Shown here in pieces: positions 10,913-25,105 of a stretch of 64,000 bases of DNA. This DNA comes from a virus: the IMG/VR virus record IMGVR_UViG_3300015063_000001, positions 779 to 64,778 of that record. One strand, 5' to 3'. The notes beneath the pieces were generated by a model. The model had not been told where the DNA came from and did not search any database. It saw nothing but the letters and a program-made list of their open reading frames with translations. Position 1 is the stretch's first letter; every line of letters begins with the position of its first letter. The translations under genes were made by a program, and so were the position numbers.

Positions 10913-11353
10913 ATGGCTATTAGAGAGATTATCCAAGGGCCGGACGACCGGCTACTGCAACCGTCCGCTCCGGTCGGTGAACTGACGGCCGACGTCCGGC
11001 GCGTCATCGATGATTTGATCGATACCAGATATCTAGGCCGTGGCGCCGCCTTAGCCGCGGTGCAAATCGGTGAACATATCCGCGTGGTGGTGACGGACCC
11101 AAAGCTGTTCTACGGCTTTAAGGGGATGATTAACCCGGAGATCATCAACCGCGGGAAGCAGATTGTCGAAGCGCTGGAGGGCTGCATGTCGATCCGGCAT
11201 GGGCGGCTGCGGTTCAAGGTGAAGCGCAACCAAGTCGTCACCATTAAATTCCGCGGCCTGGACGGCGGCGAGCACACCATAGTCGCCAAGGGCATGCCAG
11301 CGCGCCTCGCGCAGCACGAAATAGACCACCTCGACGGGAAGCTGATCGCGTGA
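10913..11353 (+). CDS. def: peptide deformylase
   Basis: Three PDF motifs: GAALAAVQIG, EGCMSI, QHEIDHLDG. Confidence 0.92.
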   Translation: MAIREIIQGPDDRLLQPSAPVGELTADVRRVIDDLIDTRYLGRGAALAAVQIGEHIRVVVTDPKLFYGFKGMINPEIINRGKQIVEALEGCMSIRHGRLRFKVKRNQVVTIKFRGLDGGEHTIVAKGMPARLAQHEIDHLDGKLIA

Positions 11354-11525: not shown

Positions 11526-13250
11526 ATGACGATCTCCGCCCCAGCCATAGCCAAGATAATTCCGGCCGAACGCCTCGCCGCCCTGCAGGCGATGGTCGCG
11601 GAATACAGTATCGCGGAAGAGCGGGAGCGCTGCGAAGACAACCTCTTGGAGTTTGTCCAAGGTGCATGGTCGAGCATTGATAGCGGAGAATTTGTATCAT
11701 CGTGGACATTGGGCGCCATGTGCGACCATCTGGAGGCATTAACTCTAGGGCATATCCCTAGACTCCTTATCAACGTGCCCCCAAGGTGCTCTAAGACGAG
11801 CTTGGTTTCTATTATTTATCCGGCATGGACTTGGGCGAGATCGGAAATATCATTTCTGAGCGGGCCACAGGTGCGGTTCCTCTGCGCCAGCTATAACCAT
11901 TCGCTGTCATTGGACAGTTCAAATAAATCACGTCGATTGTTGTTCAGTCCTTGGTTTCAAAAGTTATGGGCTGGCAAAATCATTCTACAGGCAGACCAAA
12001 ATACCAAAGCCGCATTTGATAATACTTCCGGCGGATCACGCATTACAACCTCTGTTGGAGGCAGTCTTATCGGGCTTGGCGGAGATATTCTTATTGGAGA
12101 TGATTTAAATAATACCGAACAGGTTGAATCTGAGGCTGACAGAACAAAGGTTGCAAGCTTCTGGAATGAATTTCACTCCACCCGTCTCAATGATCCGAAG
12201 CGAAGCGCCATAATCGTCGTGCAGCAAAGATTGCATGAAAGTGACGTTAGCGGAATGATACTCGATAGCGATGAGGATTGGACGCATCTTTGCTTGCCCA
12301 TGAGGCACGATGAACAGCGGCATTGCGTAACGGTTAGGCTCCCGCAATACGACAGTGATGAACCGTGGCAAGATCCTCGCACCAAAGAAGGCGAGTTGAT
12401 GTGGCCGGAACGGTTCGGCGAAATAGAAGTGCGGAAACTCGAGGCCGCACTCGGTCCCATAATGGCGAGCGGCCGGCTGCAGCAGTCACCGTCCCCGAAA
12501 GGCGGCGGCATTCTGAAGCGGGACTGGTGGCAACCATGGGACCAGGAGGAAGCCAAGCTCTACGGCCTGGAATGGTCCGGCGCCCTCAAGGAGTTTCCGC
12601 AGTTCGATCTCGTCGTCGGAAGCCTGGATACGTCCTACGGCGAAAAGCAGGAGAACGATTACAACGCATTGACGATCTGGGGTATCTGGATCGACCGCAA
12701 TAAAAACCGGCGCGCAATGCTGATGTTCGGCTGGCAGAAGCGGTTGCCACTCCACGGCAAAGTAGTCTCGGCTTATCCGACTGAGGCCAAGGTTAATTTC
12801 GAGCAGCGCCAGCGCGAGGCGTGGGGTCTAGTAGAATGGGTTGCTGACACCTGCAAGCGATACAAGGTGCGGCGCCTGTTGATCGAAGACAAAACCCGCG
12901 GTCGCGACGTTGCCAACGAAATCAATCGCCTCTACGCTCGGGAAAATTGGGGCGTCGAACTGATTAACCCGGTTGGGGATAAAGTCTCACGCACACATTC
13001 GATCGTGCCACTGTTTACCGACGGCGCTATCTGGGCACCTGACACACGATGGGCCGAAACGATTATCCAGCAATGTCAAAGCTTCCCGAAAGCGGATCAC
13101 GACGATCTTCATGATACGGTAACCCAGTACCTTAACTGGGCGCGTGATGGTGGGTTGCTGGTGCGCGCCGATGAGATGAGCGCGAGCATGCAGGAAGAGG
13201 CGGCCTACAAGCCGCAGGGGCAGTCGGTCGCGAGCATGTACGGGGTTTGA
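11526..13250 (+). CDS. terL: terminase large subunit
   Basis: Walker A region INVPPRCSKT, Walker B LIGDD, coupling motif VQQRLHESD, nuclease GSLDTSY and C-terminal FPKADHDDLHD. Confidence 0.95.
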   Translation: MTISAPAIAKIIPAERLAALQAMVAEYSIAEERERCEDNLLEFVQGAWSSIDSGEFVSSWTLGAMCDHLEALTLGHIPRLLINVPPRCSKTSLVSIIYPAWTWARSEISFLSGPQVRFLCASYNHSLSLDSSNKSRRLLFSPWFQKLWAGKIILQADQNTKAAFDNTSGGSRITTSVGGSLIGLGGDILIGDDLNNTEQVESEADRTKVASFWNEFHSTRLNDPKRSAIIVVQQRLHESDVSGMILDSDEDWTHLCLPMRHDEQRHCVTVRLPQYDSDEPWQDPRTKEGELMWPERFGEIEVRKLEAALGPIMASGRLQQSPSPKGGGILKRDWWQPWDQEEAKLYGLEWSGALKEFPQFDLVVGSLDTSYGEKQENDYNALTIWGIWIDRNKNRRAMLMFGWQKRLPLHGKVVSAYPTEAKVNFEQRQREAWGLVEWVADTCKRYKVRRLLIEDKTRGRDVANEINRLYARENWGVELINPVGDKVSRTHSIVPLFTDGAIWAPDTRWAETIIQQCQSFPKADHDDLHDTVTQYLNWARDGGLLVRADEMSASMQEEAAYKPQGQSVASMYGV

Positions 13251-13492
13251 TGATGGCGATCTCGGTTGGTCAGGTGCGAGACCTTTTGCTTCCTGGTCTT
13301 CGGGGCCATGCGATAACTTATGAAGCCATAGACGTTGCCCTCTATAGGGCGGCCTTTGATTTCACTCCTGCGGCCCCGCATATCTGGGTGCCTAAGCTAA
13401 CGGTGCCTGAGATCGCGGTTGCCACGGTTGGTGGTTTGCTGATCCGCAACCCGGTTGTCACCCGTCGTTTCTGGTCGGGGTGGTTATCGTAA
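13250..13492 (+). CDS. small protein whose N-terminus resembles the major capsid N-terminus
   Basis: TGATG coupling to terL; MAISVGQVRDLLLPGLRG versus capsid MAINVTAIRDLLLPGLRG. Confidence 0.8.
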   Translation: MMAISVGQVRDLLLPGLRGHAITYEAIDVALYRAAFDFTPAAPHIWVPKLTVPEIAVATVGGLLIRNPVVTRRFWSGWLS

Positions 13493-14223: not shown

Positions 14224-14397
14224 ATGGGCCGGCCGCGCAGTCCGTGCCAGGAGTGCGGACGGCCGGTGGTGACGTTTAGGCGCGGCCGCGTTGTCAGGCC
14301 CAGGGAAGATCATGACCTCTGCCTGAAATGCTGGCGCGCATCGCGCGAACGAGAGCAACAATCTCAAATAGTGGATAGAGACGATGATCCTAAATAG
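14224..14397 (+). CDS. small zinc-finger protein
   Basis: Manual translation MGRPRSPCQECGRPVV...DLCLKCWRASRE...*. Confidence 0.5.
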   Translation: MGRPRSPCQECGRPVVTFRRGRVVRPREDHDLCLKCWRASREREQQSQIVDRDDDPK

Positions 14398-15103
14398 TTC
14401 TGCTGAGAAAATGTGCTATACGTGTTCAAGGGTTCTCTCTTTAGATAATTTTCATAAAGATCGCTCGCATAAGGATGGTCTTCGTACCAAATGCATGGAA
14501 TGTGTCTTTGAATACAATCACGCTAGGAAAGACAGATTTAGTGCCTTGGCTCGGTTCAATAGGAAAAGTAGGAAACAGTTTTTTGAAGACAGAAAATGTG
14601 ATACCTGCGGGACTATATTTAGTCCCGTCAGTCCAATTCAAATTTATTGCAGTGTGAAGTGCAGAGGTAGTTCTGTTAACGCGAAAGAATACTCAAAACA
14701 AAGACGACGTTCATATATCGAAGAAGGTAAATGTATTATCTGCGCCAAGCAGATAGATGGCGGTGGCCATAAAAATAAATGCTCAGTATGCGCGGAAAAG
14801 AGCCGCATTGCCTCAAGGGATTTTTACAGAGATCAAAGAGTAAAAGTTCTTTTGATGTACGGAGGAAAGTGTGTCTGTTGTGGTGAAGCAGAGTTGAACT
14901 TTCTATCTCTCGACCATATAAATAATGATGGTGCGGCCCATAGAAAACTAGTGAGGGCTGGAAGCCAGATGAATAAATATGTGCTTAAAAATCACCCAAA
15001 GGACATCCAAATTCTCTGCTTTAATTGTAACATGGCAAAAGGATTCTTTGGCATTTGTCCGCATCAAAGACCAAAACCGAAGTTAGTTTGCGAGGAAGCC
15101 TAG
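14384..15103 (+). CDS. HNH homing endonuclease with multiple zinc ribbons
   Basis: YGGKCVCCGE...LSLDHINNDG...QILCFNCNMAK; several CxxC pairs; AT-rich. Confidence 0.85.
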   Translation: MILNSSAEKMCYTCSRVLSLDNFHKDRSHKDGLRTKCMECVFEYNHARKDRFSALARFNRKSRKQFFEDRKCDTCGTIFSPVSPIQIYCSVKCRGSSVNAKEYSKQRRRSYIEEGKCIICAKQIDGGGHKNKCSVCAEKSRIASRDFYRDQRVKVLLMYGGKCVCCGEAELNFLSLDHINNDGAAHRKLVRAGSQMNKYVLKNHPKDIQILCFNCNMAKGFFGICPHQRPKPKLVCEEA

Positions 15104-19811: not shown

Positions 19812-20219
19812 ATGCCGCCGATGTTGATGACGCACACCACCGACCCGCGCGACGATATCTACAAAAAGATTGGAATGAAGCGGGATCTGACAATCCCCGG
19901 CTTTTACTTGTACGGCAACCGGGTTTTGATCGGCATCTATCTGCGGCCGGAAAAAACAAAATCTGGCATCATCCTTTCCGACCAGACCCGCGATGAAGAC
20001 AAGCATCAAGGCAAAGCCGGTATCGTTCTCGCGATGGGTCATTCAGCCTTCAAATCCGACGATCATTTCAGTTTTGGGCCAGACGAATTGAAGGTCGGTG
20101 ACTGGATCATGCTGTTTGTATCACATGGCTTGAAATGTGCCGTGAACGGGCAGGAATGCCGCATCATTCGCGACCAAGACATCACCATGAAAATTCCGGC
20201 GCCTGACGCCGTATTCTAA
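19812..20219 (+). CDS. groES: GroES-like co-chaperonin
   Basis: GNRVLI..EKTKSGIILSD...GIVLAMG...KVGDWI...GQECRIIRDQDI. Confidence 0.8.
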   Translation: MPPMLMTHTTDPRDDIYKKIGMKRDLTIPGFYLYGNRVLIGIYLRPEKTKSGIILSDQTRDEDKHQGKAGIVLAMGHSAFKSDDHFSFGPDELKVGDWIMLFVSHGLKCAVNGQECRIIRDQDITMKIPAPDAVF

Positions 20220-20236
20220 TACGAGGGGAAATACCA

Positions 20237-21289
20237 ATGGCTGACAATGACGCGACCGTTACCGTGGAAGACGAGGCTGTTGTCACGGTCGACGTGACGG
20301 ATCATCCCGAGCTCGCCGCCGCCGTCGATAACGAAATTGAAGCCGCTCCGGCGCCGAAACCGGCGAAGGAAAGGGCTGCGAAGGCTTCCGGCGCCGTCGA
20401 TGAGGCCGCGGCCGCGCTTATCAAGACGGCTGACGACGCCCGTATTGCTGCCCTGGCAACGGCCGAAGCCGAGCGCCAGCGCGCGAACAACGCCGAGCGG
20501 ATCGCCACGCAGCGGGCCACCGAAGCGGAAGGCTACCGCGGCCAGGCGGAAGAGCAGCAACTCACAATCCTGACAAACGGCATCGACAGCGCGAAGCGCG
20601 AGGTTGCGTCCGCAAAGCAGGACTGGCGGAATGCCCAGGAAGCCGGTGATTTCGACAAGGCGGCGGATGCGCAGGAGCGTCTAGCGAAGGGTGCCGCCGC
20701 CGTCGATCGGCTGGAGGCGGCCAAGGCCGAGTTTGACGCGGCGCCGAAAAAGCCGACAGCCGAGGGGCGTGTCGAAGCGGCACCGGTGCCGCAGCAGGTA
20801 TCGGCGTTCGAGCGCTACGTCTCCGGCTTCCCGCCGCAGGCACAGGCGTGGCTCCGTTCCCATCCGGAATGCGTCCCGCCGCAGGTTGGCGGCAACCCCA
20901 CCAAAAACGCCGCGATGATGAAGGGCCATTACGCCGCGCTCGAGCAGAATATTGTGGAAGGCAGCCCGGACTATTTCCGCGTCATCGAAGAGACCACCGG
21001 GTACCGGGCGCCGGTTTCCGCCGCCGCTCAAGTCACTCAGGCCGGCGAAGAGCCAGCCCCGAAGCCTGCCCAGCGCCGGCAGGTACAGCCATCGGCGCCG
21101 GTCAGTCGTGACCCGCCGGCCGGCCCCGGCGTACCGCGCACGACGCGGTCTGTCTCGCTGAACCCGGAGCAGCAGGCGACCGCGAAGTTCTCCTTCCCGC
21201 ACCTACCACCGCAACAGGCGTTTGCCGAATACGCCAAGAATCTGATCGAACTCGAGGCCGAAGGTAAGCTCGGCCGGACCAGCCATTAA
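20237..21289 (+). CDS. head scaffolding protein
   Basis: SD GAGGGA; Ala/Glu-rich coiled coil; lies between portal and capsid. Confidence 0.7.
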   Translation: MADNDATVTVEDEAVVTVDVTDHPELAAAVDNEIEAAPAPKPAKERAAKASGAVDEAAAALIKTADDARIAALATAEAERQRANNAERIATQRATEAEGYRGQAEEQQLTILTNGIDSAKREVASAKQDWRNAQEAGDFDKAADAQERLAKGAAAVDRLEAAKAEFDAAPKKPTAEGRVEAAPVPQQVSAFERYVSGFPPQAQAWLRSHPECVPPQVGGNPTKNAAMMKGHYAALEQNIVEGSPDYFRVIEETTGYRAPVSAAAQVTQAGEEPAPKPAQRRQVQPSAPVSRDPPAGPGVPRTTRSVSLNPEQQATAKFSFPHLPPQQAFAEYAKNLIELEAEGKLGRTSH

Positions 21290-21899: not shown

Positions 21900-23078
21900 A
21901 TGTTTCTGAACTATAAATATCGGCTCATACCAAACAAGCGCCAGCATAGGGCGCTTGCGGATATCTGTGAGTCTCAGCGGCAACTCTACAACGCCGCACT
22001 TGAGGAAAGAATCGACTGCTATCGCAAGACTGGCAAAGGCCGTTCCTACTTCGATCAATGCAAGGCCGTGACAGAGTGTCGTCACGCCTTGCCAGAGATG
22101 GGTGCATTGCCGGCCAATCTCCAGCGGTGGACGCTAAAGCGTTTGGACGACGCTTATGCTGGGTTCTTCCGCCGCTGCAAGACAAACGGCAAAGCTGGAT
22201 TTCCGCGCTTTCGCGGTAAGGGCTGGTGGAGCAGTTTCGGGTTTGCCACGTTCAGTGGCGTCGAGTTTGACGGTAAGCGGCTTCGTTTCAAGGGATTTCC
22301 AGGCGGCTTGCGCGTTCATATCTGCCGTCCGCTTCCACAGGATTGTAGAATAACATCCTGCGTTTTCAACCGCGACCACAAAGGCTGGAACGTCTGTTTC
22401 CAGATCGAGGTCGCGGCGGCAGAGAAAAAGGCGATTGCAAGCGAGGTCGGCATCGACGTCGGGCTTATCGCTTTCGCCTACCAAAGCGACGGCGTTGCAA
22501 TTCCTGCACCGCAGTTTGCGCGGCGCGCTGAGCGTGAAATGCGCCGTAGACAGCGCGCTTTGGCCCGCTGCAAAAATGGCTCCAACTGCCGCAAGAAGGC
22601 GAAGGAGCGCGTCGCCCGTCTGCACCGCAAGATCGTTAATGTTCGCACCACTTGGCTGCATCAGCAGTCGGCGCGCATCGTAAATTCATACGATTTAATC
22701 GCCGTTGAAGATTTGAAAGTCGCCAATATGGTTAGGAATGGCCATTTGGCGCGTTCAATATCCGATGCGTCGTGGTCTACTTTCACAAATATGCTGTCCT
22801 ATAAAGCTGAAAAGGCTGGTGGGACCTTCGTGAAGGTTGACCCAAGGATGACTTCGCAAATCTGTTCTGGCTGCGGAGTGGTTGTGAAAAAGGGCTTGGC
22901 TGATCGGGTGCATTCGTGCCCTGATTGCGGACTAACTCTTGATCGCGATCACAACGCGGCGATAAACATTTTGCACCGGGCTGGGAATCGTCCGGGGGCC
23001 GCTAACGTGATCCAAGTTTGGGATGAGCGTTGGCCCGGAAACATGCCAGAGGCTCCCGCAAGGGGGCGAGTGGTATAA
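21900..23078 (+). mobile_element. tnpB: TnpB RNA-guided endonuclease (IS200/IS605 superfamily), no tnpA nearby
   Basis: N-terminal YKYRLIPN; GFPRFR; RuvC GIDVG, AVEDL and DRDHNAAINI; zinc finger CSGCG...CPDCG. Confidence 0.92.
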
Positions 23079-23447: not shown

Positions 23448-23539
23448 GGAACCTCTAGGTCGATCTGCGCCGTACCGGCACAGGGACGCCAAGACTGAGG
23501 CTACTGCGCGCTTTCATAGCTGCGCGAGGGAGATTGAAA

Positions 23540-24175
23540 TTGGCAAACACGCTTGCACCCTTCGGCTTCGTCCAGGTCGGCACAGCTTCCGGCCCCCCGA
23601 ATTTTGCACGGGCTGGTAGCCCGTCGCCTTACAAGATCGCCGCCGGCTTCACCACCGCGATTTACTTCGGTGACGCCGTCAGAATGTGGGTGTCTGGCGA
23701 CTCCGGCACCTCATCGGCTGGCTACATCACGCCTTGGGTCGTCGCCGACGGCGGCTCGGCCACCAAAATCCTGGCCGGCATCTTCCTGGGGTGCGAATAT
23801 TATTCAACGGGCCAACGCAAGACGGTCTGGAACAACTACTGGCCCGGTTCGGACGCCACTGGCGACGTGACCGCCTTCGTCTGCGACGATCCGCAGTCAC
23901 AATGGATGGTCCAGGCCGGCACCGCTGCCGTTCCGATCACCGCCGCCTCGATCGGCGCCAACGCCGATATCATCACCACACCGGTCGGCAACACGACCAC
24001 CGGCATCTCCGGCATGACTCTGGGTGTCCCGACGACCACGGTCACGCTGCCGTTCAAGGTGGTCAACCTTGTGCAGTCGCCTCCGGGTGTCAACGGCCGC
24101 GACGTCGCGACGGCGTACAACAACGTCATCGTCGCATTCAACAACCAGATCTACAAAGCCGGCTTGGGGGTCTAA
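23540..24175 (+). CDS. minor capsid / head decoration protein
   Basis: SD GAGGGAG plus TTG; MANTLAPFGF start and immediate pre-capsid position; strongly GC3-biased. Confidence 0.75.
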   Translation: MANTLAPFGFVQVGTASGPPNFARAGSPSPYKIAAGFTTAIYFGDAVRMWVSGDSGTSSAGYITPWVVADGGSATKILAGIFLGCEYYSTGQRKTVWNNYWPGSDATGDVTAFVCDDPQSQWMVQAGTAAVPITAASIGANADIITTPVGNTTTGISGMTLGVPTTTVTLPFKVVNLVQSPPGVNGRDVATAYNNVIVAFNNQIYKAGLGV

Positions 24176-24178
24176 ACC

Positions 24179-25105
24179 ATGGCAATCAACGTCACAGCCA
24201 TTCGTGATCTCCTTCTCCCTGGTCTCCGTGGGGTCACCGGCGAATACAAGCAGTGGGCCTCGATCTGGCCGAAACTGTTCGACCAGGGCAAGTCCGAAAT
24301 GGCGCAGGAGCGCACCGCTTCCATGCGGTTCCTCCCGCTGGCGCAACTCAAGTCGGACGGTGGTCAGACTTTCTTCGACAACGGCAGCGGTGAGGCTTTC
24401 GTCTACAACCAGCTTCACACCGGCATCGGCCTTGGTTACGCGATCACCCGCAACACGATCGCGGACAATCTCTACAAGGCGCAGTTCCGGCCGTCGAACC
24501 TCGGCCTGCAGCGCAGCTTCGCGCAGACCAAGGAAATCTACGCCGCGGCGGTGTTCAACAACGCCACGACCTACGACAGCACGGTTGGCGGCGATGGTGT
24601 CGCGCTTCTGAGCACCGCGCACCCACTGCCGTCCGGCGGCTCGGGCCCGGCGACTTGGGCGAACGCGCCGACGACCAACGTGGACCTCAACGAGTCGAGC
24701 CTGCTCAACGGCATGATCTCGATCCAGACCGGGTTCTACGACAACGCTGGTCTCCGCATGATGGCGACCGGCAAGACGCTGGTCATTCATCCGAACAACG
24801 AGCCGGTCGCGCTGCGCCTGCTCCGCGCCGAGCGCCGGCCCGGCACTGCGATGAACGACCCGAACGTGATCCCGATCACGGCCGGCGGCGTCACCGAATA
24901 CGTCAAGGACGTGTTCTTCACCTCGCCGTACCCCTGGTACATCAAGACCGACCAGCCCGGCCTGCTATACCTCGAGCGCGAACCGTTCGAGATTGATATG
25001 CAGGTCGACTTCACCACGGACAACCTGCTGGTGAAGGCCTGGGAAAGATACTCGTTTAATTATAACGATCCCCGCAGTTTATGGGGTTCCTCTCCCACGT
25101 CTTAA
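24179..25105 (+). CDS. major capsid protein (Mu gpT-like)
   Basis: 308 aa; very strong codon bias; GLGYAITR..IADNLY, GGDGVALLSTAHP, DFTTDN..KAWERYSF. Confidence 0.9.
   Translation: MAINVTAIRDLLLPGLRGVTGEYKQWASIWPKLFDQGKSEMAQERTASMRFLPLAQLKSDGGQTFFDNGSGEAFVYNQLHTGIGLGYAITRNTIADNLYKAQFRPSNLGLQRSFAQTKEIYAAAVFNNATTYDSTVGGDGVALLSTAHPLPSGGSGPATWANAPTTNVDLNESSLLNGMISIQTGFYDNAGLRMMATGKTLVIHPNNEPVALRLLRAERRPGTAMNDPNVIPITAGGVTEYVKDVFFTSPYPWYIKTDQPGLLYLEREPFEIDMQVDFTTDNLLVKAWERYSFNYNDPRSLWGSSPTS

Follow-up and report, generated by a model that had tools for sequence, protein, structure and literature searches.

The mini-protein gene studied here occupies positions 13253..13492 (plus strand; 79 aa plus stop) of a 64,000-nucleotide stretch of virus DNA, which is called the window below and forms part of the 81.6-kb IMG/VR record IMGVR_UViG_3300015063_000001 (positions 779 to 64,778). 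Its product, the 'mini', belongs to an undescribed family of small proteins that attach fragments of capsid genes to a single conserved module, about 40 residues long, at the C-terminus. In the explanation that we favour, tentatively and from comparative analysis, the core of a copied capsid arm would dock the mini on the scaffolding protein or on a neighbouring capsid subunit, and would thereby take the module to the assembling head.

Both copied pieces come from the kind of gene that encodes the window's own major capsid protein, a 308-aa protein with the HK97 fold (24179..25105, plus strand). Mini residues 1-18 (13253..13306, plus strand) match the capsid N-terminal arm (N-arm), residues 1-18 (24179..24232, plus strand), at 15/18 positions in BLASTP. 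The E-value is 5e-7, and none of 5000 shuffled sequences reaches the score. An earlier sequence-only reading of this DNA, made without database searches, had reported that the peptide RDLLLPGLRG is shared at 10/10 residues while 8/10 codons differ. The codon comparison confirms this, and the peptide occurs just twice in the six frames of the window, once in the mini and once in the capsid protein.

A second BLASTP segment relates mini residues 18-35 (13304..13357, plus strand) to capsid residues 86-103 (24434..24487, plus strand). Here 9/18 residues are identical and 4/5000 shuffles reach the score. A hidden Markov model (HMM) of the capsid family recovers both pieces in the window mini, at positions 1-29 (E 2e-6) and 86-104 (E 7e-5), and the second piece is also present in the relatives P0036, P0029 and P0051. 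Capsid residues 86-103 reach from the last part of the E-loop strand into the first part of the spine helix. The AlphaFold2 (AF2) model of the capsid protein has a mean predicted local distance difference test score (pLDDT) of 77 and Foldseek matches to HK97-fold capsids down to E 2e-11, and it places a strand at residues 81-89 followed by a helix at 91-95. The sequence-only reading had called everything beyond the arm copy unrelated to the capsid. That description fits residues 41-79, whose comparison score is reached by 2893/5000 shuffles, but not residues 18-35. Altogether, the window mini covers 36 of about 305 capsid profile positions and has no A-domain, so that it does not amount to a complete HK97 fold.

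The conserved module corresponds to mini residues 41-79 (13373..13489, plus strand). It consists of APHIWVPK, a hydrophobic helix at residues 49-64 and then RNPVVTRRFWSGW. The hydrophobic stretch and TRRFW end that had been noticed in this protein are both present, and they are features of the family: its modules often carry APHIWVPK, continue into a hydrophobic Ala/Gly-rich helix and finish with NPxV(T/S)RRFWxGW at or near the C-terminus. Among 65 members, the columns N66 and R72 are invariant and P67 and R71 nearly so. A twin-arginine (Tat) signal, in which S/T-R-R-x-F-L-K is N-terminal and precedes the hydrophobic region, does not account for this motif, which is C-terminal and follows the hydrophobic stretch. 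An HMM of the module matches a single open reading frame (ORF) in the window, that of the mini, with 59.5 bits. In close pairs for which DNA was at hand, the ratio of nonsynonymous to synonymous change (dN/dS) in the module is 0.05-0.14, indicating strong purifying selection. With a dN/dS near 0.1, the 40-residue module ranks with the more tightly constrained of the small uncharacterized sequences from soil phage metagenomes. Conservation and dN/dS together rule out a spurious ORF.

A word-based search returned 19 mini homologues of 70-119 aa with 42-68% identity, and an exhaustive profile search extended the family to 123 cluster representatives. Members are about 47-163 aa long, nearly all of them about 60-160 aa. 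Among the 123 matches of the exhaustive search, no genuine module protein exceeds about 165 aa; the three longer ones (215, 407 and 716 aa) are spurious repeat proteins with multi-stretch matches and were rejected. The word-based search gave no module protein between 154 and 2000 aa, which is weak evidence. Neither the window protein nor the other members scanned match any model in Pfam, PHROG or PADLOC, and none can be assigned by these models to a known defence or anti-defence family. Sequence searches of the PDB found nothing beyond a chance-level likeness to the N-terminus of SdhC (E 0.9), and tblastn searches of GenBank phages did not find the family (best E 3). Look-alikes of the mini in a protein atlas are unnamed viral clusters.

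To map the capsid pieces carried by the family, minis were scanned with an HMM built from 65 distinct capsids of the window's family (domain independent E-value < 0.01), with domain borders taken from the AF2 capsid model. In most members the part ahead of the module maps onto capsid pieces. The N-arm alone (capsid residue 1 to about 36) is present in 65 members. Other members carry the spine helix (about 79-130; 13 members), the C-terminal P-domain strands (about 255-303; 11 members) or the base of the E-loop (2 members). Two combine the N-arm with the C-terminus and two combine it with the spine helix; the A-domain is found in none. In P0009, P0024 and the G003 ORF, the capsid C-terminus continues directly into the module.

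The same design has been applied to a second kind of capsid. At least 13 members carry the N- and/or C-terminus of a P22-type coat protein on the same module, for example at L156 (2248-2478), L159 and L161, with coat genes at L165:1495-2721 and L168:1480-2721. In the genomes G032-G034 the resident capsid is a P22_CoatProtein (PF11651, E 1e-35), and the sole additional coat-like fragment sits in the mini, where it corresponds to coat residues 1-30 (57% identity) or 368-403 (44% identity). The HK97-type and P22-type families used in this way have no detectable sequence likeness to each other. By sequence comparison, the minis thus track the resident capsid at the level of the capsid family.

A close relative of the window virus, G035, has a capsid 94% identical to that of the window and keeps capsid pieces and module apart. 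A 107-aa ORF on its minus strand (52750-52427; L175/L176/L179) is a capsid mosaic that lacks the module and lies 0.85 kb upstream of the module gene. The mosaic is permuted: the arm is followed by a piece resembling the C-terminal hairpin, recognized by eye and by way of P0113, and then by the strand and spine helix. The whole resembles a stand-alone miniature P-domain. P0139 joins this mosaic and the module in one protein (37% identity over 84 aa, E 1.7e-15). In G035 itself the module protein, P0122, begins with a part in which no capsid likeness was detected. The first 27 residues of P0122 are repeated, with 78% identity, where a neighbouring 80-aa ORF begins (G035 51623-51168 and 51023-50781; L175/L176), and the module can therefore also ride on the start of another gene.

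Differences in codon usage had been taken as a sign of selection on the peptide rather than of recent DNA duplication, and one half of this proposal stands. In three family-1 pairs of mini and resident capsid, identical residues share identical codons at 4/15, 5/10 and 7/17 positions, and synonymous sites are saturated. In these pairs a recent conversion event with the resident capsid as donor is therefore excluded. The codons by themselves do not show selection, and a fragment descending from a diverged capsid gene would explain the differences equally well. RDLLLPGLRG is the commonest arm of this capsid sub-family.

The 65 arm-type minis, on the other hand, have diverged to 24-55% identity and are constrained in a way that is distinct from capsids. 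They retain the arm core, with conservation of 0.91 at R9, 0.92 at L12, 0.97 at P14, 1.0 at G15 and 0.91 at L16. Positions that are nearly invariant in capsids (N4, D10, R17, G18 and G21) are relaxed, and a proline has been gained at position 2. The earlier description of the protein as a capsid-arm mimic is thus borne out insofar as the copy is homologous, the gene is conserved (123 representatives) and the arm core is retained. It is not borne out by fine-scale co-variation of the mini with its resident capsid, as described below. The roles that had been suggested for such a mimic (assembly modulator, portal/terminase adaptor, membrane tether, or decoy for a capsid-sensing host defence) are conjectural.

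In the window, the mini-gene directly follows the large terminase gene terL (11526..13250, plus strand; phrog_38, E 1.3e-84). The terL stop codon TGA is at 13248-13250, and the start of the mini-gene either overlaps it or comes 2 nt later. Besides the ATG at 13253, which has a GGGG run 6 nt upstream, an ATG at 13250 and a TTG at 13247 are possible starts. The coupling to terL that had been noted is confined to this genome. L003 is otherwise syntenic, but there the mini-gene lies between two tail-module genes; in L002 it follows the scaffold block, in G001 and G005 it is upstream of terL, and in three lineages it comes after a NeuB-type sugar gene. Wherever neighbours can be identified, the gene is on the same strand as the structural or terminase genes, and no conserved neighbouring gene was found in the loci read.

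The NeuB-type synthase loci (L016 848-1833; L181 156-1069; L182 2330-3252) have the mini-gene directly after the synthase gene, within a sugar-modifying block, and in L002 (10001-13386) glycosyltransferase-like and sugar-nucleotide genes come after it. This neighbourhood hints at a link with an auxiliary glycosylation cassette, or at a shared insertion hot-spot.

The gene is also sporadic. The capsid family includes more than 5600 proteins at E < 1e-10. In 25/25 IMG/VR records with this capsid, of which 7 are complete and one has a capsid 91% identical to that of the window, the module and any extra capsid fragment are absent. Given this patchy occurrence and these varied positions, the gene is accessory and mobile in its position, and the family as a whole does not share the coupling to terL. 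Nothing convincing was seen around the window gene in the way of a moron-type promoter or terminator or a shift in composition, and its GC content (0.58-0.62) is similar to that of neighbouring genes. The record's DNA is present in soil metagenome runs of one study, and no RNA run that contains the sequence is listed among public runs. The mini-ORF is a genuine, non-essential late gene, and it appears to be expressed alongside the phage's own late genes.

In the mechanism that we favour, the mini would dock through its conserved arm core (L..IR..L.PGL), a peptide that would contact the assembly partner of the capsid arm itself, which is most likely the C-terminal domain of the scaffolding protein, or else a neighbouring capsid subunit. 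The module, with its hydrophobic Ala/Gly helix and basic-aromatic end, would be the strongly selected effector, whose target might be a membrane, DNA or protein, and would in this way be brought to the procapsid, with the mini acting either as a minor head-associated component or as an assembly modulator. The scaffold C-terminus binds the N-arm helix of the coat protein in 80alpha (PMC5644958), and in P22 it binds the N-arm helix together with P-domain residue R101 (PMC9965877). The proposal of docking rests on this scaffold grip on the N-arm and on the presence in the mini of equivalent elements: its N-arm and spine-helix start correspond to the inner capsid surface that scaffolds contact. 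A putative scaffolding gene, assigned from its position and composition, lies upstream of the capsid gene (20237..21289, plus strand) and is the candidate source of the N-arm partner. The C-terminus of its product resembles a helix-turn-helix and is conserved in 19 relatives.

Several observations count in favour of docking: the reality of the family, the selection on its module, the peripheral mapping of the pieces, the use of P22-type coats and the retained arm core. So do the fusion or fission of mosaic and module in G035 and P0139, and the strand shared with structural and terminase genes. If docking is correct, the family would amount to a naturally occurring collection of minimal tags for head targeting, and would help to show which capsid elements are recognized during assembly.

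Other observations weigh against it. Members with C-terminal strands only, or with the spine helix only, do not fit a simple arm-scaffold picture. Since 25/25 related records are without the gene, heads evidently assemble in its absence. Fine-scale tracking of the resident capsid by the mini piece was not found: among 184 capsids the resident ranks 144th, 90th, 8th, 90th and 79th as a match to its mini, so that the co-variation expected of a mimic of its own capsid fails at this level. A non-resident capsid, P0171, matches the window mini better than its own capsid does (16/18 versus 15/18), and the mini arm of G001 derives from another capsid sub-lineage. The capsid-derived part is nearly neutral in two close pairs, with dN/dS values of 0.75 and 1.3 (18 and 8 changes). 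Finally, the AF2 model of the mini is weak (pLDDT 64, four helices); owing to its low confidence it was left out of the fold searches.

Some of these same observations speak for a possible, if doubtful, alternative in which the capsid pieces are evolutionary baggage and the module alone is functional, for example as a small membrane-active or tail-anchored protein. A redundant capsid copy, or a C-terminally extended capsid, would have provided the start codon and then shrunk by in-frame deletions and recombination. Internal deletions would yield what single-copy members show, namely that N-terminal pieces precede C-terminal ones and that the A-domain is never kept, and the direct run of capsid C-terminus into module in P0009, P0024 and the G003 ORF agrees with such an ancestry. 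The contrast in dN/dS between capsid part (0.75-1.3) and module (0.05-0.14) and the loose fit to the resident capsid are in line with a relic, as is the G035 module with its non-capsid-like N-terminal part, whose start recurs in the neighbouring ORF. Between P0009 and the G003 ORF (L181, L016), the proportion of synonymous differences (pS) is 0.80 in the capsid-derived part and 0.37 in the module. Such unequal values in two parts of one gene imply recombination inside the mini-gene, and thus different histories for the parts. However, no module protein longer than 154 aa was seen, so the postulated full-length ancestor is itself unseen. A relic also does not readily explain why two capsid families without detectable sequence likeness gave rise to the same architecture, or why the arm core persists in 65 minis at 24-55% identity while positions invariant in capsids have decayed. 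The permuted order of arm, C-terminal hairpin, and strand plus spine helix could not result from deletions alone.

Rather unlikely, in our estimate, is that minis serve as decoys or baits, with the module anchoring or stabilizing capsid peptides that harmlessly occupy a host abortive-infection sensor or a satellite protein that redirects capsids. An accessory gene with sporadic distribution and mobile position would suit this role, and different members do present different capsid peptides, as differing sensors would demand, with the type of peptide following the capsid family of the phage. The hydrophobic segment may span a membrane: its best 19-residue Kyte-Doolittle mean averages 1.74 across the family and is at least 1.6 in 44/65 members. 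In the window mini, though, this mean is just 1.47, and the segment includes a glutamate (E54). No PADLOC model or known anti-defence family matches, and the gene is located in late structural operons, not with early genes. Moreover, free capsid peptides trigger rather than block at least one host sensor, as in the case of the Gol peptide and Lit. If decoys were nevertheless the answer, phages would have a previously unseen type of counter-defence, one directed against the sensing of capsids.

A broader version of this proposal is less probable still. Phages would repeatedly build 'capsid-peptide presenters', in which short peripheral peptides of their own capsid (arm, E-loop base, spine helix and P-domain strands) are mounted on a conserved hydrophobic Arg-Arg anchor, C-terminal in this family, that would hold them in one location, probably at the membrane. 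From this position the peptides would lure factors able to recognize unassembled capsid, as decoys or baits; such factors could be immunity sensors of the host, satellite proteins that redirect capsid size, or a checkpoint in assembly.

The least probable reading is assembly interference, in which a dominant-negative capsid fragment poisons the heads of co-infecting related phages as Tab and Tai do for tails: phage-borne blockers of rival virion assembly have precedent (PMC10884400, PMC11364771), the fragments derive from the periphery of the fold (arm, E-loop base and P-domain, never the A-domain) and some minis, such as that of G001, carry the arm of a non-resident sub-lineage, yet an arm copy 15/18 identical to the phage's own capsid should poison its own heads, no immunity partner or conserved neighbouring gene is evident, and expression of the gene seems to accompany that of the late genes of the phage itself.

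Several other genes in the window deserve mention. The head-gene block includes a GroES-type co-chaperonin (19812-20219; Cpn10, E 3.7e-10). Upstream of the capsid gene are a conserved 190-aa protein with homologues in L002 and L003 (21301-21873) and a conserved 213-aa protein (23534-24175; phrog_37556), either of which could be a further head-assembly partner. A 392-aa ORF between the scaffold block and the capsid gene (21900-23078) resembles, by eye, a TnpB/OrfB-type transposon protein. Between terL and the portal gene, a 239-aa Cys-rich ORF resembling HNH-type endonucleases (14384-15103) has a GC content of 0.38-0.42 in surroundings of about 0.58-0.68, and is probably a recently acquired homing element. 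An ORF at 10913-11353 resembles peptide deformylase by eye.

The mini lacks the defining features of every known family tested, although several systems share part of its design. T7 gp10B is a full-length minor capsid protein that acquires an alternative C-terminal extension by frameshifting. It is similar in joining capsid sequence to an extra C-terminal segment, much as the capsid C-terminus of some minis runs into the module. A minor capsid protein of this type was ruled out; a full-length capsid with the module was sought and not found. The internal proteins of T4 share a short N-terminal leader that targets them to the capsid and is cleaved by the prohead protease. As would be the case for minis, a short N-terminal peptide common to several proteins directs them to the assembling head, but the T4 leader, which the protease cuts off, does not reproduce the capsid arm. 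No prohead protease turned up among the head genes scanned, which were not searched systematically for one, and no cleavage of the mini is evident.

T4 gp24 is a capsid-derived accessory protein. So, reportedly, is Ccm of SaPIbov5 (PMC8569155). Like the mini-genes, these are extra genes descended from a major capsid protein gene. In contrast to the mini, whose 18 plus 18 capsid residues cannot form the fold, they retain a complete HK97 fold and are built into the lattice. The Tab and Tai defences, which block the assembly of tails (PMC10884400, PMC11364771), are likewise accessory proteins of phages or satellites aimed at virion assembly. They differ in having tail targets, in not being copies of the target protein and in being expressed from prophages or islands.

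CpmB of SaPI1 copies the C-terminal peptide of the scaffold, which is used at the contact between capsid N-arm and scaffold of 80alpha (PMC5644958). Both are small accessory proteins that reproduce a terminal peptide of a protein involved in assembly. CpmB is a scaffold copy encoded by a satellite, whereas the mini is a capsid-arm copy encoded by a phage and known from sequence alone. A satellite copy of a terminal peptide (CpmB) and capsid paralogues with the whole fold (Ccm and gp24) were thus already known. No counterpart was found, in the literature and libraries searched, to a phage-borne family that recycles peptides of 15-60 residues from the phage's own capsid on one module.

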